Positions 1-9,108 of a DNA stretch of 9,108 nucleotides are shown piece after piece. Both the position numbers and the translations under genes were made by a program. The stretch's first letter is position 1; every line of letters starts with the position of its first letter. The DNA lies in IMG/VR virus record IMGVR_UViG_2534681834_000001, positions 1-9,108 of that record. One strand, 5' to 3'. The notes below the pieces were generated by a model. That model saw nothing but the letters and a program-made list of their open reading frames with translations. It made no database searches and was not told where the DNA came from. The DNA is from a virus. Its lineage: Monodnaviria; Loebvirae; Hofneiviricota; Faserviricetes; Tubulavirales; Inoviridae.

Positions 1-129
1 CTATGACATATCTCCCTGGTATCGGCGGACAACCAAAGGCACAACATGAAACATCATCATGCCGCCTTCCATGCCTGACGGCATAAAAACAATAAAACAA
101 ACATCGTCATATTGCTTAAAAAATGCCAT
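1..129 (-). CDS. Hypothetical small protein (about 42 aa) downstream of pIV; speculative
   Basis: By my reading a minus-strand frame is open from the pIV stop down to a TAG occupying window bases 1-3, with an in-frame ATG at 127-129 (a TTG at 163-165 is an alternative). It is below the ORF-track length cutoff and has a weak RBS. The window starting exactly on a stop codon, and ending exactly on the hipB start, suggests gene-boundary trimming. Confidence 0.25.
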   Translation of the reverse strand: MAFFKQYDDVCFIVFMPSGMEGGMMMFHVVPLVVRRYQGDMS

Positions 130-189
130 AAACCAAGATTCATCTTCTGTCCGTTCTCCTCGCAAAGCTGCGGGGATCGGACAGAATTC

Positions 190-1416
190 TCATCTTGGTA
201 CTTTGCGAACCTGAAGCATCACAACAATATCTGTCTTAGAATTTTCTGATGAACGTGAGCCAAAAATAGACCAACCAGACGAAGATTTAGAATCCTTCTG
301 CTCTGCAAGGCCGCCTATCAAAATAATATCACCATCATTCATAACAACGTCTGTTGTCACATCTCGCTTTAAAAGCGTCGGAGAATTATTAACGCCAGTA
401 TCAGTTGCAACAAAATTAGAAAGCTGCTGTTGAATGTTCAAATCAATAGCGTTGATTTTAATAGATGGTTTCACTCTAAACAAAACCCCTGAGCTACGAT
501 ACTCAACAGACTGAGTTGAATTATTACCATTAACTGTAACACTACCTAAAACAGGAACATCGGCACCTACAGAAAAAGAAGCCTCTGTATTATTCTTCAC
601 GCGCAATCTTGGCGAAGATACAACAGAAAATCTGTTATCAGTTGAAAGTAATGTATAAATTGCATCAATTGAACCTGTTTTTAAACTCAAAAAATCACCA
701 GAAGTACTAACGTTAGAGCCAAGAGAAATATTAAATTTTTCAGATATAACTTTAGCAGCAAGTAAAAATCCTGAGCCATCATTCTGACCAGTCTGAACCT
801 CAAAAACATATCCTGAAACAACAACCTCATCAGGAACCGTATCAATGGTTGGCAATATGCTTTTGATAATGTCAATATCTTTTTGTGTGCCATAATAAAC
901 AAGAGAATCACCTAACCTATTGAAATTATTAGAAGCCCCTGAAGAAGAAGTACTGGATATGTTAGTGCTTATATTTCCTGAATTTCCAAATTGACCAGAT
1001 ACAAAACCAGAGAGAATATCAGACAAATAACCAACTGAACGATTTAATGGAGAATACACAAAAACCTTTAAAATGGGAGGTTTTTCTTGAGGTTTAAAAG
1101 GCGTTATGTAGTCAACACCTTTTTTTGTATGAATTTTAATGTTCATATTAGAAAAATAACGTTCAATAAAATCACGCTCATTAACATCCTTGGTTATTTT
1201 AAATGAAACAAGTCGTTGGTCATTGGCTAAATCAGGAGAAATCATATAAGGAACCTTAAAAACCTCTGAATAAATCAAAGAAATAGCCTCAGGTAAAGCA
1301 AGCTTTTTTATTTCAAGCTCAGTGGCAGAAAAACAAGAAAAACTAAAAACATCAAGCACATATATATTAAACGTTTCATTTGTCACCACCTGAATAAAAA
1401 GTAACAAGCTCACCAT
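190..1416 (-). CDS. Filamentous-phage pIV-like outer-membrane secretin (virion export channel)
   Basis: Final gene of the module, about 410-430 aa, with a secretin-like C-terminal region (…DGDIILIGGLAEQKD…IVVMLQVRKV) whose architecture matches M13 pIV as I recall it. The track ORF begins at a TTG (1479); the first ATG (1414-1416) has an AGGA RBS about 7 nt upstream, so I place the start at 1416, overlapping the pI stop by about 40 nt. Confidence 0.85.
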   Translation of the reverse strand: MVSLLLFIQVVTNETFNIYVLDVFSFSCFSATELEIKKLALPEAISLIYSEVFKVPYMISPDLANDQRLVSFKITKDVNERDFIERYFSNMNIKIHTKKGVDYITPFKPQEKPPILKVFVYSPLNRSVGYLSDILSGFVSGQFGNSGNISTNISSTSSSGASNNFNRLGDSLVYYGTQKDIDIIKSILPTIDTVPDEVVVSGYVFEVQTGQNDGSGFLLAAKVISEKFNISLGSNVSTSGDFLSLKTGSIDAIYTLLSTDNRFSVVSSPRLRVKNNTEASFSVGADVPVLGSVTVNGNNSTQSVEYRSSGVLFRVKPSIKINAIDLNIQQQLSNFVATDTGVNNSPTLLKRDVTTDVVMNDGDIILIGGLAEQKDSKSSSGWSIFGSRSSENSKTDIVVMLQVRKVPR

Positions 1417-2413
1417 CAACAATTCCTGTAAGTAAAACACCTTGATAATTAAAGGTGGAAGCAGGAACCATGCGGACAAGACCTGAATTATTTGTAATTA
1501 TCACATAGCTACGCCCTTCTCTTTCAAGTTTCCCAACGATACGCCAAGTTGAAGATAATTTAGGTGTATTTGGAATTTCAGGAACTGAATTAAAATTAAC
1601 AGAACGTAAATTAGATTCCTGAGGCGGCAAATCAGAAGCATCACTCTTGACCAAACCACCATTAAAAAACCTATAAAGATAACCAATGCTAAATATGAAA
1701 ATGAGAATCATAGCAAGAACAACAAAATACAAACTTTTCTTGCCTAAAATGCTAGCCCGATTATCAACAGTAAGTTCTTTGCCATCCCCATTCTCATATG
1801 ATTTATACAAAGGGAATATATCTGGATTATATTTCCTCTGATAACTTGTAATTTTGTTTGACTTATAAAGTTTAGAACCATTAAAAACATCGACACGATA
1901 ACGACTCTTCATGCCAATAGCAATATGCTTTTGCATTCTAAAAGTAGTATCTAACCTTGCTTTAATAAAACGAGGTAAAGAAGAAACCTCCTGATTTATA
2001 ACAACAAGGTCACAACAAACACCAGTTTCAATATTAGTAAAATGACGATGCTCGGCAATAAATGAACGATGATTCTCACAAATGGATTTATCACTATCCC
2101 AAATGCGCCAAGATTCATCAATAACAATCAAATCTCCATACTGACAAAATGTATCTTCAGGACGAGAATCTTTATATGGGAAAAAATCATCAGCTTTGAC
2201 ATCATCATTAGAAACATAAACAACATCACCTAAAGATATATCTTTCCCCGATTTTGATTTTTTCATGCAATAAGCATGAATTTTATCTTTATTTATACCG
2301 TAAATATTAGTAACAACACGACGCCCAGAAGAACAAGCAGGTACAATAACACTAGAAACAACCTCGTATGATTTACCACTACCTAAAGAACCAACATAAG
2401 CAGAAATAGGCAT
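1376..2413 (-). CDS. Filamentous-phage pI / Zot-family assembly ATPase
   Basis: N-terminal Walker A motif GSLGSGKS, directly comparable to M13 pI GKLGSGKT, a single internal hydrophobic segment (YFVVLAMILIFIFSIGYLY), about 345 aa, and located between pVI and pIV. The track start at 2425 is a TTG; the ATG at 2411-2413 puts the Walker A at the N-terminus as in pI/Zot. Confidence 0.85.
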   Translation of the reverse strand: MPISAYVGSLGSGKSYEVVSSVIVPACSSGRRVVTNIYGINKDKIHAYCMKKSKSGKDISLGDVVYVSNDDVKADDFFPYKDSRPEDTFCQYGDLIVIDESWRIWDSDKSICENHRSFIAEHRHFTNIETGVCCDLVVINQEVSSLPRFIKARLDTTFRMQKHIAIGMKSRYRVDVFNGSKLYKSNKITSYQRKYNPDIFPLYKSYENGDGKELTVDNRASILGKKSLYFVVLAMILIFIFSIGYLYRFFNGGLVKSDASDLPPQESNLRSVNFNSVPEIPNTPKLSSTWRIVGKLEREGRSYVIITNNSGLVRMVPASTFNYQGVLLTGIVDGELVTFYSGGDK

Positions 2414-2417
2414 AAAA

Positions 2418-2711
2418 CTAACCAATAATCGGAATTCTACGAATAATAAAACGAGTAATATATGCGTTAAATATTAACTGAAAACCTTCATTGAACTTAA
2501 ATAAATCAAAAAAATACCACATAGGAGCAGGTAAAGCTCGAAATAAAGCTGGCACGTTAAAATTAAATGGTATCCATGAAGATAATACATAAATGAACTC
2601 ATGAACAACAAAAAGAAGTCCAAAAAACAAAACAAACCTAATGATAACAGTTCTAAAAATAAAACCTAAAAGAACATTAACGATACTAAATAACAATCCA
2701 AATAAAGCCAT
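2418..2711 (-). CDS. pVI-like minor coat protein (hydrophobic, 97 aa)
   Basis: Highly hydrophobic small protein in the pIII-pI slot, with an ATG start and a GAGG RBS. Its stop lies 4 nt before the pI ATG. Assignment is by position and composition only. Confidence 0.6.
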   Translation of the reverse strand: MALFGLLFSIVNVLLGFIFRTVIIRFVLFFGLLFVVHEFIYVLSSWIPFNFNVPALFRALPAPMWYFFDLFKFNEGFQLIFNAYITRFIIRRIPIIG

Positions 2712-2726
2712 TTTAAAACCTCAATG

Positions 2727-4199
2727 TCACGTAGAAAGCAAAATACGCAAGGAAATTAAAGCCCATATCAAAGAAGAAATGACACCAATAAAAGAACGGT
2801 ATTCCTCCAAAAATACGCAATGCATATCAATAACGTAATCTCTATCAAACACATTAAATTTAGCAACAGGACATGTAGCAGAAAGACCTGATGGACGTAC
2901 TTCTAAATCTCGATACTGATTAAAAAGTTCTTTAATTGGACGAAGTATCTCCTCCGCAGAAGGTGGTGTATCTAGCGTCGGTTCCGGCACGTCTGGATGA
3001 CTAAAATCAGGATTATTTGTACCATTATCAGAACCGCCACCTGACTCACCAGAAGAAAATCCAGGCGCACTAATATTCACATCAGAAGATGGTGAATTTT
3101 GAGCTGGATACATATAATCAAATTCTGTCAAAGAACCATAATTAGGATAAGCAACTTTTATTTCATTCGATGTTACAGGATTTGTTGAAGATACAGGGAC
3201 TCCCTGATAATCTGGCTGGGATGCTGCATCCATTAATAAATTATTTATCATCTTAGCAAGAGTATCCAAATCCATAGGGACTTTCTTTAATCCATCCATA
3301 ACAGAAAACCCATCATCATCAGTTGCCATCTTATAATCAGAAAAAAGAATCTCTAGAGCCTTATCAAAATCCTTATTAAAATACACCTGTATACCCTGAA
3401 TAGGAGTAATAGTAGTAGTTATTGACTCACTATCTGTATTTAAATAAGAAGAAGTATAGCTATATTTTACAGACGAGGCCGCCCCCTCTTGTCCTTCATT
3501 TACCGATAAAATATTCAACTTATAGCTACAAGATTTATCAGGTGCCCGGCAAGTTAAACCACCACCTGATGCAACTGAATTAAAATATCCTTGAGCAACC
3601 CCAGTAACAGAACCTACAATAAATGGCCCCTTACAAGATGTACCATAAGTACATTGCCACCAACGATAACCGGCACTTACCTTATCAACAGTATCATAAC
3701 TATTCATATTAAGTGAGTCAGCACTGATGACAAAAGGATTATCAGGAGTTGGTTCAAAATCTACAGTAAACGTTTTATCACCAAAATTAACCTCCCATTT
3801 ACCGTTACCTAAAGCTTTACCAGATGTGGCAATTAAATAACGACCATTATCAGAAAAATTTTCAGCAGTAAGAGACCCAACGGAATATCCAACTCCAGCC
3901 CATGTCAATGCACCTGAAGCACTACGGAAAAAGCCCTTGCTGGCAATAGATGGCGATTTTGACAACACAGTTTTAGATACTGCTGTAGATGTATTCCTAA
4001 CCATTAATGAATAAGCAGATTCGGTAGTCGTTACCTGAAGAGCTCTAGATGAAATCACCCTACCAAGCACAGTTGGAAGAACTGCCCTAGTTACAAGTAA
4101 AGGATTAGAGTAAACTTTCTGCACTGGAATTAATAAAGAGAAAAAAAATATAAAAAGAGATGTTAAAGCGATAACCCTTTGATTACAGCCCAAGCGCAT
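2727..4199 (-). CDS. pIII-like minor coat / adsorption protein (490 aa)
   Basis: N-terminal signal-peptide-like hydrophobic stretch, Cys-containing N-terminal domains, a Gly/Ser-rich linker (SSGESGGGSDNG) and a C-terminal domain with membrane anchor (…CPVAKFNVFDRDYVIDMHCVFLEEYRSFIGVISSLIWALISL…) that resembles the M13 pIII C-terminus pattern C.P..F…IDC…FR. It sits immediately after the pVIII terminator. Confidence 0.75.
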   Translation of the reverse strand: MRLGCNQRVIALTSLFIFFFSLLIPVQKVYSNPLLVTRAVLPTVLGRVISSRALQVTTTESAYSLMVRNTSTAVSKTVLSKSPSIASKGFFRSASGALTWAGVGYSVGSLTAENFSDNGRYLIATSGKALGNGKWEVNFGDKTFTVDFEPTPDNPFVISADSLNMNSYDTVDKVSAGYRWWQCTYGTSCKGPFIVGSVTGVAQGYFNSVASGGGLTCRAPDKSCSYKLNILSVNEGQEGAASSVKYSYTSSYLNTDSESITTTITPIQGIQVYFNKDFDKALEILFSDYKMATDDDGFSVMDGLKKVPMDLDTLAKMINNLLMDAASQPDYQGVPVSSTNPVTSNEIKVAYPNYGSLTEFDYMYPAQNSPSSDVNISAPGFSSGESGGGSDNGTNNPDFSHPDVPEPTLDTPPSAEEILRPIKELFNQYRDLEVRPSGLSATCPVAKFNVFDRDYVIDMHCVFLEEYRSFIGVISSLIWALISLRILLST

Positions 4200-4250
4200 A
4201 AAAGTCCCCAGAAAAAACTCATTAAATACCAGAAATTTAAAATCATAACC

Positions 4251-4276
4251 AAAAAAAGGGGAGAAACTCCCCTTAC
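4251..4276 (-). terminator. Rho-independent terminator downstream of the major coat gene
   Basis: On the minus strand: AAGGGGAG-TTT-CTCCCCTT followed by a run of T, starting about 10 nt after the pVIII stop. This is the same position as the strong terminator after gene VIII in Ff phages. Confidence 0.7.
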
Positions 4277-4285
4277 CTTAATAGA

Positions 4286-4516
4286 TTAAGCCGATTTAAC
4301 TGTACGAAGAATCCAACGAACGCCAGCAATACCAGCATAAAGTACAACTAATGATGCTGCTACGGCCATAATACCAGTAAGAACAGAACCAAAATCAATT
4401 GAATTGGTAAGTTGACTCAAATCAACCCCTGAAGAAGATGTGCCTGGGTCATCAGCAAAAGAAGGCATAGAAAATGAAGCTGCCAGTAATGAACCTAATG
4501 AAATGATCTTTTTCAT
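4286..4516 (-). CDS. pVIII-like major coat protein precursor
   Basis: From MKKIISLGSLLAASFSMPSFA (signal peptide, AxA-like cleavage before DDPG) the mature ~55-aa protein has an acidic N-terminus, hydrophobic core and basic C-terminus (RWILRTVKSA), the hallmark of inovirus major coat proteins. GGTGG RBS before the ATG at 4514-4516; the track's longer start at 4537 is less likely. Confidence 0.85.
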   Translation of the reverse strand: MKKIISLGSLLAASFSMPSFADDPGTSSSGVDLSQLTNSIDFGSVLTGIMAVAASLVVLYAGIAGVRWILRTVKSA

Positions 4517-4529
4517 AAAAATCCACCAT

Positions 4530-4757
4530 TTATGCATTTCGTATTAACTTGATAATCAAGCTGATGCAATGTGAAAATAAATACAAAGCAACAACCGAAG
4601 TAAAAGCAACCCCCCAATATTGAGCAAATATTGAATAATCAATATCAGAGAATTGCTGGTATGGAATCTCAGAAAAAATTAACTTGACTTCCTTACAGTC
4701 ACCACTGGGTTTAATATCACAAATAGAGGCAATAATAACTTTATCATGAGATTCCAT
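4530..4757 (-). CDS. Small membrane protein (75 aa) at the pVII/pIX position; function unknown
   Basis: Single ORF between pV and pVIII with a C-terminal hydrophobic segment (WGVAFTSVVALYLFSHCISLIIKLI). Ff phages have two ~32-aa proteins (pVII, pIX) in this slot; here there is one longer protein. Assignment is positional only. Confidence 0.5.
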   Translation of the reverse strand: MESHDKVIIASICDIKPSGDCKEVKLIFSEIPYQQFSDIDYSIFAQYWGVAFTSVVALYLFSHCISLIIKLIRNA

Positions 4758-4763
4758 AACTTA

Positions 4764-5036
4764 TCACTTTTCTGCAATAGGAATTAAAACAATCTTACCA
4801 ATACGTAATTTTTGAAAGTCACCAACAAAAATACTGGAAGGATGCAACTGATACAAACCAGCCGGATATGGAGCCTGGCCTTGTTCAAGAGGAATTTTAA
4901 ATAGTTGAGGGTAATCCCCACCGAGGAAAATATAACCAGACTGTTCAGATATCGTATATGGTTTACCAGTGTTCTTAGAAACACCACTACGAGTATCTGC
5001 AACAGCTTGAGTAGGTTTAATTTCAATCTTAATCAT
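4764..5036 (-). CDS. pV-like ssDNA-binding protein (90 aa)
   Basis: The translation MIKIEIKPTQAVADTRSGVSKNTGKPYTISEQSGYIFLGGDYPQLFKIPLEQGQAPYPAGLYQLHPSSIFVGDF… aligns along its length with M13 gene V protein (MIKVEIKPSQAQFTTRSGVSRQGKPYSLNEQLCYVDLGNEYPVLVKITLDEGQPAYAPGLYTVHLSSFKVGQF…, from memory). AGGTG RBS; start 13 nt after the pII stop. Confidence 0.9.
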   Translation of the reverse strand: MIKIEIKPTQAVADTRSGVSKNTGKPYTISEQSGYIFLGGDYPQLFKIPLEQGQAPYPAGLYQLHPSSIFVGDFQKLRIGKIVLIPIAEK

Positions 5037-5049
5037 AATACACCTAATG

Positions 5050-6165
5050 TTAAGCTACACGTAAATAAGACGGCTTTATATACCAAGAAGGAATAACACA
5101 ATCCGAAACAGTTATTTCTCTTGTTTGTTTCACAACAACAGGAGAGAATTTAGAGACATTACATTTTTGAGCAATATCAATACCAATCTTCCTTAACCTT
5201 GCTCGATGTGTCTGGACTTGCTTTTTATTTAAATCAAAAATATGACCGTGAAACCATTGAATTGCATACATGGCTGTAGTATTGGCAGCACGAGTAGTGT
5301 CAACAACACCACGACTAATAAGATGTTCACTAATAGTTTCAAAGTCCATAGCATTCACCGATAACTTTTCATCAAGCTCAAGAAATTCAGAATGTAACTT
5401 ATTTAACAAAGAATAATCAGAAAGTCCCCAATAGCACATGGATTTTTTTTGAAGAAAACGAGACTTTAATTTTTGCTCAAACCTGACAATGCCGTTGTCC
5501 TTGCAGTAATTAATGACATCCATTATATAATTAAATTCTTTAGAATCCTCTGAGAATTTATTTTTGATTTTCGCAAGGCTATGCAACTCAAGCTCATGAG
5601 CTTTGTTATATACTGTTGGGTATATAAGATTGACATTGCCTTTTTTTGAAAGCCAGTCAACGGATTTCCCATTGGAATGCAACCGTGGAATACTATTCCT
5701 GTAAGGTTGAGTAGAAAGACCTGATATATAATCATCCTCATTCCCCTTCCCTACTGATTTGTTTGATGTTATATGCAGTTCTTTAATTAAAGCACCATCA
5801 GTAATCAAATGAGCTTTTTCATTCTCTTTCGATTGTCCAGGCATTAACTTTGTACACTTGGTAAATAAAGGTAATTTCAGTTCAGTTAGAATCTGATTAA
5901 ATACCATGACACAAGCATCTACAGTCGGAAGCCCAAAAAGATTATCAAGACGTCCCCAGCGGGACGGATTTCCAGTCATTTTTAACACTGAACCACGGAT
6001 CGAGATTGAAACAACATCACAGAAAGAGCCACGATGCTGGAAGGTTGGTTGAGATAATGCGCTAGCCTCCCCGCTTTCAAGATGTATACGCTGATAAGCT
6101 ACATCGCTCAGTATCGGCAACTGATAGCCGAAATCCTGTTCGATAGTTAACCAGTCGTAAAACAT
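5050..6165 (-). CDS. pII-like rolling-circle replication initiator (nickase)
   Basis: First and largest gene of the module, directly upstream of pV. The internal segment DNGIVRFEQKLKSRFLQ matches M13 gII SGLVRFEARIKTRYLK (from memory). The track start at 6177 is a TTG; the first ATG (6163-6165) is preceded by a GAGAG RBS. Confidence 0.85.
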   Translation of the reverse strand: MFYDWLTIEQDFGYQLPILSDVAYQRIHLESGEASALSQPTFQHRGSFCDVVSISIRGSVLKMTGNPSRWGRLDNLFGLPTVDACVMVFNQILTELKLPLFTKCTKLMPGQSKENEKAHLITDGALIKELHITSNKSVGKGNEDDYISGLSTQPYRNSIPRLHSNGKSVDWLSKKGNVNLIYPTVYNKAHELELHSLAKIKNKFSEDSKEFNYIMDVINYCKDNGIVRFEQKLKSRFLQKKSMCYWGLSDYSLLNKLHSEFLELDEKLSVNAMDFETISEHLISRGVVDTTRAANTTAMYAIQWFHGHIFDLNKKQVQTHRARLRKIGIDIAQKCNVSKFSPVVVKQTREITVSDCVIPSWYIKPSYLRVA

Positions 6166-6177
6166 AGAATCTCTCAA

Positions 6178-6360
6178 TCATTCAAGATGAGCCGCAAGGC
6201 TCAACACTGATACTTAACGGTATCAATAATGCTATTATCAAACATAACAGACGTCAATGGTATTGATACTAACAAATATCAAAACTGACCCTACAGATTC
6301 AGCTATGAAAAATGGAGGTTAAAATTAAGACTTTGCAATCAGCATGAGAAGGCAGCAGAT
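6178..6360. promoter_or_regulatory. Divergent promoter/operator region between pII (minus) and the HTH regulator (plus); possibly also the plus-strand origin
   Basis: 183-bp AT-rich intergenic spacer between divergent genes. Candidate sigma70 elements for the regulator: TTCAGC (6298-6303), 16-nt spacer, TAAAAT (6320-6325), then an AGAAGG RBS. Candidate for pII on the minus strand: TTGACG (rc of 6252-6257), 17-nt spacer, TAGCAT (rc of 6229-6234). The motifs are weak matches. Confidence 0.5.
6205..6285. repeat. Cluster of TATCAA / TTGATA hexamers (putative operator or iteron sites)
   Basis: TATCAA at about 6221, 6236 and 6276; inverted TTGATA at about 6263; inverted pair TGATAC-N6-GTATCA at 6208-6225; GTATTGATAC at 6260-6269. 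They overlap the candidate pII promoter elements. Confidence 0.4.
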
Positions 6361-6849
6361 ATGGCAGTAGACAAAGAGTGTGCAGAACGTATACGTCTGT
6401 CTATCATCCAAAATTTTACATATGACGATATCGAAAATGAAACAGGTATCAGCGTCAGTACCCTTAAACGGCTGGCTTCTGGAGAAAGGGAACCCAAATT
6501 AATAGAAATCAGGAAGATAGCTAAAGCGACAGGAAAAAATCCGGTATGGTTAGCATTCGGTGAGTCAACCCTGCCTCTGCCTGAGAACCTTGGCGAAGAT
6601 ATGACTGCTTTTGGTTACGGTATGGATTTTAAGTTACAAGGTCATGAAGCAGGTGAAGCGGCGGCGAAAATCCGCCTGATGGCCGCGATCCGGGACATAG
6701 AGAAAGATGATGTTGTTTTTCTGGAAAAATTTATAGACTTGCTGAATCTGGATCGCACAATAAACAGCGTCAAAACCAAACGTTACGGCTACACAGAAGA
6801 AGAAACGCTGAAAAGACTAAACCTTCCCCAGCCGAAGGGGAAAAAGTAA
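6361..6849 (+). CDS. XRE/Cro-CI-type helix-turn-helix transcriptional regulator (putative prophage repressor, 162 aa)
   Basis: N-terminal HTH signature (…TYDDIENETGISVSTLKRLASGEREPKLIEIRKIAKATGKNPVWLAFGE…) typical of phage repressors, with a C-terminal ~90 aa I do not recognise. It is transcribed divergently from pII, like rstR versus rstA in CTXphi, and is noticeably more GC-rich than the structural module. Confidence 0.8.
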   Translation: MAVDKECAERIRLSIIQNFTYDDIENETGISVSTLKRLASGEREPKLIEIRKIAKATGKNPVWLAFGESTLPLPENLGEDMTAFGYGMDFKLQGHEAGEAAAKIRLMAAIRDIEKDDVVFLEKFIDLLNLDRTINSVKTKRYGYTEEETLKRLNLPQPKGKK

Positions 6850-6852
6850 AAA

Positions 6853-6909
6853 TACCGTGGGAAACCACGGTAAAGTTCGGGTGTCACAGAACCCCGAACC
6901 GCTTCGCGG
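6853..6909 (+). other. Three consecutive GC-rich stem-loops immediately after the regulator stop (terminator-like, or ssDNA origin/packaging hairpins)
   Basis: TACCGTGG-GAAA-CCACGGTA (6853-6872; 8-bp stem with a GNRA-type loop), GTTCGGG-N11-CCCGAAC (6875-6899), and CCGC-TTC-GCGG (6899-6909). None is followed by a T-run, so they are not classical intrinsic terminators. Confidence 0.4.
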
Positions 6910-7348
6910 TACAAATTTTAACCAAATGAAGAAAAAAAGACCATGCTTAAAAAAGATGGAAAAAGGAAAAAATAGTTGTTATTGAAAAAGCCAACTGCTT
7001 AGACTGCGAACAATTATCAGAAAGAATAGTTGAAAAAATCAAAGAGACAGAAGCATTAATAGAATGCCCTATTGGAGAACTGGACTTTCAATACATCGTC
7101 ATGAATGAAGCCAAAGCATATGCTATAAGAAAAAGAAAAAGATTTATATTTCAAAGGGTTAGCATATGATTTTGAAGGGGGTGAAAAAGCAGAATGGACA
7201 AGAAATTTAAGGGATGCACTCATATTCGATGATGAAAGAAAAGCAGCAATGATGATAAGGATAATGACATTCCCAAGAATGAATTATGAAATAGTTCCTT
7301 TAATCTACAAAGTAGATCCTCTATTCAAATCTGAAAAATAAAAATTTT

Positions 7349-7375
7349 GGTACGCACAATGGCGTTATGTATAAA
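7349..7375 (+). other. dif-like XerC/XerD site A (phage attP-type, degenerate)
   Basis: GGTACGCACAA-TGGCG-TTATGTATAAA against E. coli dif GGTGCGCATAA-TGTATA-TTATGTTAAAT (from memory): XerC arm 9/11, XerD arm 8/11, 5-nt central region. It lies in inverted orientation to site B on the other side of the hairpin. Confidence 0.5.
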
Positions 7376-7413
7376 AAGGCCGCTGCCGGATGAAAGTCTA
7401 GCAGCGGCCTTTT
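7374..7413. terminator. Perfect 13-bp stem-loop, bidirectional terminator-like; core of the putative attP forked hairpin
   Basis: AAAAGGCCGCTGC (7374-7386), 14-nt loop, GCAGCGGCCTTTT (7401-7413). A GC-rich stem with a T-run on either strand, about 105 nt downstream of the hipA stop, so it likely terminates hipBA transcripts and plus-strand transcripts from the phage side. Confidence 0.6.
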
Positions 7414-7443
7414 CAACATAACGCATACTACATTATGCGCACC
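7411..7443 (-). other. dif-like XerCD recombination site B (host-type XerC arm; putative prophage-chromosome junction at dif)
   Basis: Minus strand reads GGTGCGCATAA-TGTAGTATGCG-TTATGTTGAAA: the XerC arm is 11/11 to E. coli dif and the first 4 nt of the central region (TGTA) also match, then it diverges; a XerD-like arm (9/11) follows after an 11-nt rather than 6-nt central region. It is about 75-110 bp downstream of the hipA stop, where I recall the chromosomal dif of E. coli K-12 to lie. Confidence 0.6.
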
Positions 7444-7519
7444 AGTATAAACCAAGGAAGAATCCAGTCGTTGGCGGTCATGATTGTCGTGCTCATTAAC
7501 AACGACCAAACCCCATATC

Positions 7520-8842
7520 TCACTTACTACCGTATTCTCGGCTTAACCGTCCATGCAACCTCAACACATTGGTTTCAACTGCCGTCACCACGTTCTCCGG
7601 AAAATCTGTCGGTAATGAAGTCTTCACGTTATCCAGTGCTGCCGGAATCATTCTGGCAAAGTCACTTAGGATTTCATGCATCTGCACTTCCGGGAATCTC
7701 AGCACCTTTGCTGTCGCCAAAAAATGTCGCGGATAAATTTTATCGATTGCCGTTTTTTTGCCTTTGGATGCGTTAAGCCCCATTGCCAGTTTGAGATCGC
7801 TGATGTGTATTCCCGTACCGCCAAGGACCGGAAATGCTGAAATGATGTCGTAAAATGGCGTGAGTCGATAACTGCCGCCAGCCTGAATAAATACGGAGAA
7901 GTTTTTTGCATGGCCATCCGTTGCGCCAATCAACCACTGGAAGACCTGGAATTTCATAAAATCATAACGATCGCGAAGCGCCTCGCTGGACCCCATCAAA
8001 AACGCCATGATCCGCGCGATGCCTGGGCCTCCATCTGATTCATATTTCACAGATGAAGGTAAACCGAATGTCTGACACATATCCTCCTGTGGCAAGCGAA
8101 GTAAAACCGTTCGCTCAGTATTCCAACGCCTGTCAAAACGTTCGACCGCTAACGCGCGCACCCTTCCCGCTTTAATGATTTCTGCGTCCGGAACATTCAA
8201 CCCAAGTTCTTTCGCCAGCAGCAGACAGTAATACTCATTATCAACGCTTTGGCTGAGATCGAGCGTCGCATTGGGCTGCCTGATTTCGCCAATCGGTAAT
8301 TTAATGATGTGCGTCGTCGGCGTTATTCCTTTCGGAATGCACCAGTCATTGCCTATTCTAAGCAGCGCTGTCTTCTCCTGCGCGCCAGCAACCGAGATGC
8401 GAAAGTCATTTTCTTCTCTAATCATGCCCAGAGGGATATCTGCTTTATAAGCCGTTAATACTTCTTCAAGCCTGGCTTCAGTAAGCTTTTCCCATGCCAT
8501 TATCGGGCGCGTTATGGTTTCATTTTCGGGTAATAACGTTACGGCACCAACGCTGTCTCGCCCTATTTCTGACAATAAATCAAACGGTTGTCTGGATTTA
8601 GCATGATAACGTTTAACGATCCGGTCACGTACAATCGGGCTATCGGGTAACAGGTTATCGAAGAAGTTAAATACGGCATCTGAGGTGATATTCCCCCTCT
8701 GCAATGGCAGCGAAAGTGACAACGGTCTGGCATAACGGCTGGCTAACCACTCCGGTGCATACTTAAAGGTGTGCGCGCCGTTGGCTAACTTCGTTAACTC
8801 GCCTACCCGCTGGTTGTTCATCCAAGTGACAAGTTTAGGCAT
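7520..8842 (-). CDS. hipA: HipA serine/threonine kinase toxin of the HipBA toxin-antitoxin system
   Basis: The translation from MPKLVTWMNNQRVGELTKLANGAHTFKYAPEWLAS… to …LRLHGRLSREYGSK matches E. coli HipA (440 aa) as I recall it. The track ORF is extended upstream to an out-of-context start; the real ATG at 8840-8842 overlaps the hipB stop by 1 nt. Confidence 0.97.
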   Translation of the reverse strand: MPKLVTWMNNQRVGELTKLANGAHTFKYAPEWLASRYARPLSLSLPLQRGNITSDAVFNFFDNLLPDSPIVRDRIVKRYHAKSRQPFDLLSEIGRDSVGAVTLLPENETITRPIMAWEKLTEARLEEVLTAYKADIPLGMIREENDFRISVAGAQEKTALLRIGNDWCIPKGITPTTHIIKLPIGEIRQPNATLDLSQSVDNEYYCLLLAKELGLNVPDAEIIKAGRVRALAVERFDRRWNTERTVLLRLPQEDMCQTFGLPSSVKYESDGGPGIARIMAFLMGSSEALRDRYDFMKFQVFQWLIGATDGHAKNFSVFIQAGGSYRLTPFYDIISAFPVLGGTGIHISDLKLAMGLNASKGKKTAIDKIYPRHFLATAKVLRFPEVQMHEILSDFARMIPAALDNVKTSLPTDFPENVVTAVETNVLRLHGRLSREYGSK

Positions 8843-9108
8843 TACCACTCCAGATCTTGCTGTTCTGTTGATTCTGGCGAGGCATTTTTCGTGTCGCATA
8901 GTGTCATTGAGAGTTCAAGCGACTGTAAAATCTTAAAAAATGTCGTGAGCGTGGTATTGTCAGGGTTGTTTTCGAAATTGGAAATTGTCGCCTGCTTAAT
9001 GCCAATTTTTTTCGCCAGCTCGCTCTGCGTCCAGCCATTTTGCTGGCGAACCAGTTTCATTGCATTCGCTAATTGCGTTGGGCTATAGATCTTCTGAAAG
9101 CTCATCAT
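8842..9108 (-). CDS. hipB: HipB antitoxin / HTH autorepressor of hipBA
   Basis: The 88-aa translation MMSFQKIYSPTQLANAMKLVRQQNGWTQSELAKKIGIKQATISNFENNPDNTTLTTFFKILQSLELSMTL… matches E. coli HipB. The start codon is the final triplet of the window, so the promoter and operators are outside it. Confidence 0.97.
   Translation of the reverse strand: MMSFQKIYSPTQLANAMKLVRQQNGWTQSELAKKIGIKQATISNFENNPDNTTLTTFFKILQSLELSMTLCDTKNASPESTEQQDLEW

Follow-up and report, generated by a model that had tools for sequence, protein, structure and literature searches.

The DNA analysed here, hereafter the window, is a stretch of 9,108 nucleotides (nt) that makes up positions 1 to 9,108 of the inovirus record IMGVR_UViG_2534681834_000001 in IMG/VR. 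Most of it is the body of a filamentous (inovirus) prophage on the minus strand (1 to 7432); the last 250 nt of the phage unit and a regenerated dif site lie to the left of the window. On its other side the prophage is followed by the Escherichia coli genes hipA (7520 to 8842, minus strand) and hipB (8842 to 9108, minus strand). Where the prophage meets the chromosome, short of hipA, lies an imperfect palindrome, and it is this palindrome, and the way in which the phage came to be joined to the chromosome, that we consider here. The original prediction, made from the sequence alone, took the palindrome for a phage attachment site (attP) of the CTXphi type, in which single-stranded DNA (ssDNA) folds into a hairpin that the XerC and XerD recombinases of the host join to dif.

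A palindrome built from two dif-like sites

Read base by base, the palindrome runs from 7347 to 7445, with the letters earlier described for 7347-7447. It had been pictured as about 100 nt long, with two inverted dif-like sites around a perfect 13-bp stem, and this was confirmed base for base. A repeat finder returned the perfect 13-nt inverted repeat (7374-7386 with 7401-7413) as well as an outer 15-nt inverted pair (7362-7376 with 7410-7424).

The window was searched with a regular expression for a XerC-like arm, 4-13 nt and a XerD-like arm. This composite module has two matches, both within the palindrome. Site A (7349-7375, plus strand) reads GGTACGCACAA TGGCG TTATGTATAAA. It consists of a phage-derived 11-mer resembling a XerC arm (7349 to 7359), which pairs with the XerC arm of site B in the folds described below, a 5-nt spacer (7360 to 7364), which becomes the bottom strand of the centre once the site is folded, and an 11-mer resembling a XerD arm (7365 to 7375). 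Site B (7411-7443, minus strand) reads GGTGCGCATAA TGTAGTATGCG TTATGTTGAAA. Its XerC arm (7433 to 7443) is host-derived, as seen when the empty site, both junctions and the intact attP are compared, whilst its 11-nt central region (7422 to 7432) is followed by a phage-derived 11-mer resembling a XerD arm (7411 to 7421). The first four bases of this centre, TGTA (7429-7432), are those of the host dif centre. The two sites are inverted, 35 nt apart, and have spacers of 5 and 11 nt. Neither a canonical 28-bp dif (up to 3 mismatches) nor a dif-like site with a 6-bp spacer was found anywhere in the window.

One explanation is that an ordinary hairpin resembles dif arms by chance, and single 11-mer arms with up to 2 mismatches do indeed occur in the window at chance frequency. 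The composite module does not: 2000 simulated windows of the same dinucleotide content held a mean of 0.0575 modules, and only 3/2000 held two or more. Together with a fold z-score of about -8, exact reciprocal junctions and an architecture kept across genera, all described below, these simulations rule out a chance likeness, to which we give virtually no credence.

Folded as ssDNA, the plus strand reaches a minimum energy of -32.4 kcal/mol (z -7.6), and 0/200 shuffled sequences folded as well. The fold reproduces the pairings of the original prediction: 12 pairs join 7348-7361 to 7431-7444, 7362-7370 pairs with 7416-7424, 7374-7386 pairs with 7401-7413, and six nucleotides (7425-7430) are left as a one-sided bulge. 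The minus strand of the prophage copy folds better (-35.0 kcal/mol, z -8.4) because two A.C mismatches turn into G.T wobbles, and the viral strand of the intact attP reaches -38.0 kcal/mol. The apex of this forked hairpin is a perfect, G+C-rich 13-bp stem with a 14-nt loop (7374 to 7413), found by the repeat finder and in the folds of both strands, and unchanged in eight variants. Since A runs and T runs border it on both strands, the inner stem may double as a bidirectional terminator; a terminator scan did not flag 7374-7413, because its 14-nt loop exceeds 8 nt. A search of Rfam gave nothing above threshold; the weaker matches, all to generic models of long-hairpin miRNA precursors, we take as chance.

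Empty site, reciprocal junctions and crossover interval

An alignment to prophage-free genomes was among the tests set beforehand for the prediction, and all those that could be run by computation favoured it. In prophage-free E. coli K-12 the palindrome is missing, and the corresponding position, 77 nt downstream of hipA, is occupied by a canonical dif, GGTGCGCATAATGTATATTATGTTAAAT. Among 5426 complete E. coli genomes, 5238 align with the window on the hipA side only, from about 7425 rightwards, with homology stopping at about 7425-7429, and none spans the palindrome at high coverage. These data bear on the possibility that the palindrome belongs to the E. coli chromosome itself at this place downstream of hipA, for example as a hipBA terminator or as part of the dif region. 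In its favour, a related hairpin stands next to hipA in some strains that have no phage genes there. Where phage genes are lacking, however, the hairpin has lost the site B arm and is bordered by accessory genes and by a separate, canonical dif; we therefore interpret these cases as decayed remnants of mobile elements. Moreover, K-12 and most genomes have a plain dif and no hairpin, and the hairpin is found inside circular and tandem phage units and in Yersinia, Photorhabdus, Pectobacterium and other genera. A native origin is thus refuted by the empty site, and we give it very little credence. The adjacency to hipBA, which the prediction had pointed out, is real but incidental; any special biological significance of it was rejected, given that dif natively lies 77 nt from hipA in K-12.

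Host identity in the window begins at 7429 and covers 15 nt of dif (7429-7443), namely the XerC arm and four central bases. The second junction, which had been predicted to lie left of the window, was found on the source contig 250 nt beyond the window start. As read on the contig it runs from host sequence through ATTTAACATAA TATACA TTATGCGTACC into phage sequence; written from XerC arm to XerD arm it is GGTACGCATAA TGTATA TTATGTTAAAT, that is, the phage XerC arm (with a diagnostic A at position 4), the host centre and the host XerD arm. The dif regenerated at this left end of the prophage differs from the canonical site by 1 mismatch and, judged by its sequence, looks functional. The intact attP could be read directly from 7694-nt contigs with an 11-nt terminal overlap, which give a phage unit of 7683 nt, and from the junction between tandem copies in a second assembly of this phage.

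All four sites were then written from XerC arm to XerD arm. The host dif (attB) is GGTGCGCATAA TGTATA TTATGTTAAAT, site B of the free phage is GGTACGCATAA TGTAGTATGCG TTATGTTGAAA, the hipA-side junction in the window is GGTGCGCATAA TGTAGTATGCG TTATGTTGAAA and the far junction is GGTACGCATAA TGTATA TTATGTTAAAT. Comparison of the four therefore places the exchange within the 11-nt interval CGCATAATGTA, which is bounded by an arm polymorphism at 7440 (C in the host, T in the free phage) and by the first phage-specific central base at 7428; the phage centre shares only TGTA with the dif centre. The XerC cleavage position lies inside this interval, and the exchange point is expected between 7432 and 7433. 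The prediction that site B has a perfect host XerC arm and diverges within the centre, as after a XerC-mediated crossover, is borne out, as is the expectation that both inverted sites stay together at one prophage end, the hipA-side junction holding site B, hairpin and site A. The data support the view that 7347-7447 is the hipA-side (attR-type) junction, in which the whole phage attachment region is kept.

Conservation of the attachment region in related phages

The same anatomy is found in relatives. Strain 300709 carries three tandem copies of a related phage (80-96% amino acid identity) between dif and hipA, with the same arrangement at every junction. JNE23-001 carries a tandem array of another lineage with at least two copies, and A37 carries both a tandem array of another lineage at dif and a 7439-bp circular form of the same phage. 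The circular form (locus L015; the array is locus L016) was deposited as a 7439-bp 'plasmid unnamed4' and is presumably the replicative form. In these three strains and in eight further E. coli loci the site B spacer is 11 nt long and starts with TGT, and the site A spacer is 5 nt long; the 11/5-nt spacers are kept in all variants from E. coli and other Enterobacterales that were compared.

A consensus fold of eight distinct variants has 39 pairs, with the 6-nt bulge always on the site B strand, and six of the stem pairs are kept through two-sided (compensatory) changes, both in and outside the XerC arm. A 21-mer of the hairpin core, TTATGTTGAAAAGGCCGCTGC, occurs exactly, twice, in Yersinia pestis. 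It was also found in Photorhabdus, Pectobacterium, Kluyvera, Lelliottia, Kosakonia, Izhakiella and Rosenbergiella, and every one of these has the double site in the same layout.

Two side observations concern these loci. JNE23-001 (locus L014) carries extra site-B-like modules, AGTGCGCATAA GACATATGCCG TTATGTTGAAT, at 2103-2135, 2567-2599 and 10719-10751; they lie between dif and phage as well as between one phage copy and the next, at a spacing of about 460 nt, and may be very small satellite elements or old integration scars. Contigs with an E. coli-type dif flank and the junction of this prophage also occur in bins labelled Candidatus Nanosynbacter and Ruminococcaceae (loci L031 and L041), and are probably mis-binned Enterobacteriaceae sequence.

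The packaged strand and the route of integration

In inoviruses the genes read in the same sense as the strand that is packaged. Here the genes for morphogenesis and replication all lie on the minus strand of the window; moreover, homology to phage If1 runs to the reverse of the window, and the If1 genes are on the deposited strand of If1. By this gene orientation and If1 homology, the packaged ssDNA is the minus strand of the window. Read on the minus strand, the hairpin has site B, in top-strand orientation, as its 5' half; XerC cleavage of such a hairpin would link the host arm with site B, which is the joint observed. A plus-strand hairpin would predict a host arm joined to site A, a joint that is not seen. 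The original prediction had the plus strand fold, and on this point it was mistaken.

We regard the element as very probably a 7.7-kb filamentous prophage at the E. coli dif which has kept a CTXphi-type hairpin attP at its hipA-side junction, as the original prediction proposed; the empty site, both hybrid junctions and the lack of a recombinase of its own all agree with this. By analogy with CTXphi, from which the ssDNA substrate, catalysis by XerC only, resolution by replication and irreversibility are carried over, integration could have proceeded as follows. In the free phage, the packaged (+) ssDNA would carry two inverted dif-like sites whose spacers, 11 nt in site B and 5 nt in site A, would make them unusable. 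Intrastrand pairing would give a forked hairpin whose stem rebuilds one XerC-binding and one XerD-binding arm around a partly unpaired centre, with 11 nt on the cleaved strand facing 5 nt and the difference taken up by the 6-nt bulge. Host XerC, presumably acting alone, would cut the hairpin after GGTACGCATAA and dif after GGTGCGCATAA, one pair of strands would be swapped, with the exchange stabilised by the common TGT(A), and the resulting pseudo-Holliday junction would be turned into a prophage by replication. The hipA-side product would be the host XerC arm, phage centre, phage XerD arm, hairpin and site A, the arrangement present in the window, and the far-end product would be the phage XerC arm, host centre and host XerD arm, making a working dif. 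As duplexes, sites B and A, with their 11-bp and 5-bp spacers, would not be Xer substrates, and integration should therefore be irreversible; progeny would come from tandem copies, by rolling-circle replication that runs across them. A prophage present as a single copy, like this one, is predicted to be locked in, which bears on its ability to spread.

Several points weigh against this reading. Double-strand exchange at site B alone would give the same junctions, which thus do not distinguish ssDNA from the replicative form as substrate. The covariation among the eight variants is limited to few pairs and contributes only -0.52 kcal/mol, a modest signal because most stem positions are invariant, and some of the compared sequences carry host-derived outer flanks. 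In the fold, pairing of the XerD arm is imperfect (one mismatch and a 1-nt bulge), and the 5-nt bottom-strand spacer is one below the canonical centre. Lastly, the prophage in the window may be inactive, as it appears to be a single copy on its contig and carries frameshifts, although the latter may equally be sequencing errors.

The first of these points opens a different route, in which the replicative form, as double-stranded DNA, uses only site B to recombine with dif, as in phages of the VGJphi type, with identical junction products. Site A and the stem-loop would then serve otherwise, for instance as a bidirectional terminator that insulates the cargo gene from hipBA or as a replication or packaging signal. 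The stem does stand between convergent units, the accessory open reading frame (ORF) and hipA, with an A run and a T run flanking its inner part as in an intrinsic terminator. However, the site B spacer is 11 bp in every variant, and the equivalent CTX attP1, with its 12-bp spacer, is unusable as a duplex Xer substrate (PMC4246890). No dif-like site with a near-canonical centre was found in the phage. Moreover, site A keeps its Xer-like arms and 5-nt spacer across diverged phages and genera, and its pairing with site B is more extensive than a terminator would require and includes compensatory changes both within the XerC arm and outside it. We therefore consider the double-stranded route unlikely and favour the folded ssDNA.

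Gene content of the prophage

The core inovirus gene set is complete and co-oriented. From left to right, all on the minus strand, it comprises a secretin (190-1479), Zot/pI (1376-2425), DUF2523/pVI (2418-2711), a pIII-like protein of 490 amino acids (2727-4199), the coat protein (4286-4537), ORF75 (4530-4757), the ssDNA-binding protein pV (4764-5036) and the rolling-circle replication protein pII (5050-6177). A divergently transcribed, repressor-like gene with an HTH_3 domain occupies the position of rstR (6361 to 6849, plus strand), and the accessory (cargo) ORF slot ends just before attP (6857 to 7341, plus strand). A Pfam scan of 10 ORFs returned G2P_X_C/Phage_CRI, Phage_DNA_bind, DUF2523, Zot and Secretin, with Phage_Coat_B below the cutoff; it found only inovirus functions and the repressor, and no integrase or recombinase domain. 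For integration the phage would thus appear to rely on host XerC/XerD.

The accessory ORF is intact (154-162 amino acids) in identical copies of the phage but broken in the window. Compared with these otherwise identical copies, the window has single-A deletions within A runs at 1344, 6931, 6966, 7129 and 7135; the last four break the accessory ORF, and the secretin frame is also shifted. The pattern looks more like homopolymer sequencing error in a draft assembly than true decay.

The phage is a mosaic. Its replication/repressor module (4751-6917) shows 98.6% nucleotide identity to prophages of the JNE23-001 type, which carry an unrelated structural module and occur in enterotoxigenic E. coli (ETEC) strains such as E24377A, and 78.5% nucleotide identity to the non-integrating phage If1. 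Between the repressor gene and the cargo ORF, the minus strand of 6810-6940 forms four small hairpins in a row (z -4.7). Within this region 6840-6899 has 92% identity to Alteromonas phage phiAFP1, and 6855-6936 recurs in other E. coli genomes; the run of hairpins may be a minus-strand origin or a packaging signal common to distant inoviruses.

Spread of the hairpin and its cargo slot

A hairpin related to that of the window (7340-7427, 80-92% identity) is present in 922/5426 complete E. coli genomes, with up to 14 per genome. It occupies 755 chromosomal and 482 plasmid places, at none of which is it annotated in RefSeq. The gene directly upstream varies among phages, being a DUF6953 gene, a DUF2971 gene with an MltR-family regulator, a 'mobilome CxxCx11CxxC protein' or a hypothetical gene (loci L017-L027).

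Hairpins were also observed outside phages. On ColV-type plasmids near iss/ets there is a module of about 2.7 kb (locus L009, 3288-6071; locus L010, 4346-6077) that begins with a 28-bp dif-like site with a 6-bp centre, TGTGCGCACAA TCTATC TTATGTTAAAT, and continues with an ISNCY transposase pseudogene, a gene of the STM4504/CBY_0614 family, and site A with the hairpin, the XerC arm of site B being replaced. It looks like a decayed Xer-dependent element that moved onto virulence plasmids. On the chromosome of strain CFSAN061763 (locus L011, 5328-8140) the stretch from a canonical dif to hipA holds no phage but a transposase pseudogene, a gene of the SIR2 family and the hairpin in the same truncated form; this locus is a non-phage remnant at dif with a defence-like gene.

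The genes found in the cargo slot thus include SIR2, DUF2971 with MltR, DUF6953, 'mobilome CxxCx11CxxC' and STM4504-family genes, some of which resemble defence genes. We suggest, tentatively and with more doubt than confidence, that the hairpin attP is an exchangeable cassette, which always adjoins a variable cargo slot and is seen with at least four sets of inovirus replication and morphogenesis modules, unrelated to one another, across Enterobacterales. In that case dif-integrating inoviruses, together with what remains of them, would offer accessory or defence genes a frequent but largely unannotated way into the terminus region. Once recognised, the 11/5-nt double site identifies the exact borders of a prophage as well as its cargo slot. 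The broader lead is the breadth of this attP cassette and cargo slot, including the plasmid-borne remnants.

Comparison with known dif-integrating phages

In CTXphi El Tor, attP1 is AGTGCGTATTA TGTGGCGCGGCA TTATGTTGAGG (PMC3089051), and attP2, AATGCGTATTA TACGCCA TTATGTTACGG, lies inverted about 90 bp away; their spacers are 12 nt and 5-7 nt, and in the (+) ssDNA the two fold into a forked hairpin of about 150 nt (PMC3089051; PMC4246890). Integration needs catalysis by XerC alone, the junction is resolved by replication and the process is irreversible (PMC3089051; PMC4246890). Like CTXphi, the phage in the window is an inovirus without an integrase that is integrated at dif and whose two inverted dif-like sites have spacers that exceed or fall short of what duplex Xer recombination allows (12 and 7 nt in CTXphi, 11 and 5 nt here). 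In both, the spacer of the cleaved strand begins with TGT and so matches the host dif, and the XerD arm begins TTATGTTGA, the attP1 arm TTATGTTGAGG being comparable to TTATGTTGAAA of site B. The attP lies between the cargo slot and divergent repressor on one side and the end of the morphogenesis operon on the other, and the variable cargo slot occupies the position that ctxAB has in CTXphi. In both cases the exchange falls on the XerC side and leaves a restored dif at the opposite end, and tandem arrays occur. The differences are that the host here is E. coli, whose dif the arms match; that the hairpin is about 100 nt with sites 35 nt apart, as against about 150 nt and about 90 nt; that there is no sequence homology beyond the Xer arms; and that this phage, known from sequence alone, has its own secretin, an If1-type replication gene and no toxin cargo.

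Nearer relatives of the attachment region are Ypfphi and the E. coli phage CUS-1, which are classed as CTX-type and have attP features that fit direct ssDNA integration (PMC3089051, PMC4246890). Both are like the present phage in being integrated at dif in tandem and in having a homologous attP hairpin: TTATGTTGAAAAGGCCGCTGC, the 11/5-nt layout and the order of arms are common with Y. pestis, and related copies of the hairpin in E. coli are about 84% identical to that of the window. The shared 21-mer and double-site layout therefore make the attP of the window a diverged homologue of the Ypfphi-type attP. The centre differs, being TGTAGTATGCG / CGCCA here versus TGTACGACTCG / CGTCA, as does the lower XerD arm. 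The morphogenesis proteins are distant (Zot 50%, secretin 65% and coat 63% amino acid identity), pIII is only 33% identical over half its length, and neither the If1-type replication gene (81% amino acid identity to If1) nor pV has a match in the Y. pestis locus. CUS-1, from E. coli O18:K1:H7, and Ypfphi of Y. pestis reportedly share 99% nucleotide identity over 7.1 kb. We rejected an assignment of the phage in the window to CUS-1/Ypfphi, since structural proteins reach only 33-65% identity, no replication module is shared and attP alone is clearly homologous. The JNE23-001-type prophage was likewise rejected as CUS-1, being a different lineage that occurs in ETEC strains such as E24377A. CUS-1 itself was sought in K1 and sequence type 95 (ST95) genomes, where PMV-1 has a plain dif and ST95-32 a rearranged lambdoid remnant.

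UPphi viruses are inoviruses of about 7.5 kb that are integrated in tandem at dif in E. coli and other Enterobacterales (Shapiro and Putonti 2020, PMC7307601). Their repeats match only the first 15 bases of dif, with accessory ORFs beside the dif end, their structural genes are IKe/I2-2-like, and core genes are about 98% or more identical to UPphi901 (PMC7307601). The present prophage is like them in sharing exactly 15 nt (7429-7443) with dif and in having an accessory ORF beside the dif end. The UPphi paper, the main survey of such phages in E. coli, describes only the partial dif repeat of 15 bases and no inverted second site or hairpin, the words 'hairpin', 'attP' and 'inverted' each occurring 0 times (PMC7307601). 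Zot of the window had no IKe, I2-2 or If1 match among 53 phage records, and judged from Zot alone this is apparently not a UPphi virus. VGJphi, like CTXphi one of the integrative mobile elements exploiting Xer (IMEX), is likewise an inovirus that integrates at dif by a XerC-first exchange, but its one dif-like site is usable as duplex DNA and its integration is reversible, whereas here there are two inverted sites with 5- and 11-nt spacers.

Taken together, the kind of attP found here is already known, with precedents in E. coli, and the window brings no new mechanism; what it holds is a mosaic phage of a separate lineage, whose attP is a variant. The comparison suggests that the single-strand integration design of CTXphi is not confined to Vibrio, but is a standard attachment module of diverse filamentous prophages of Enterobacterales.

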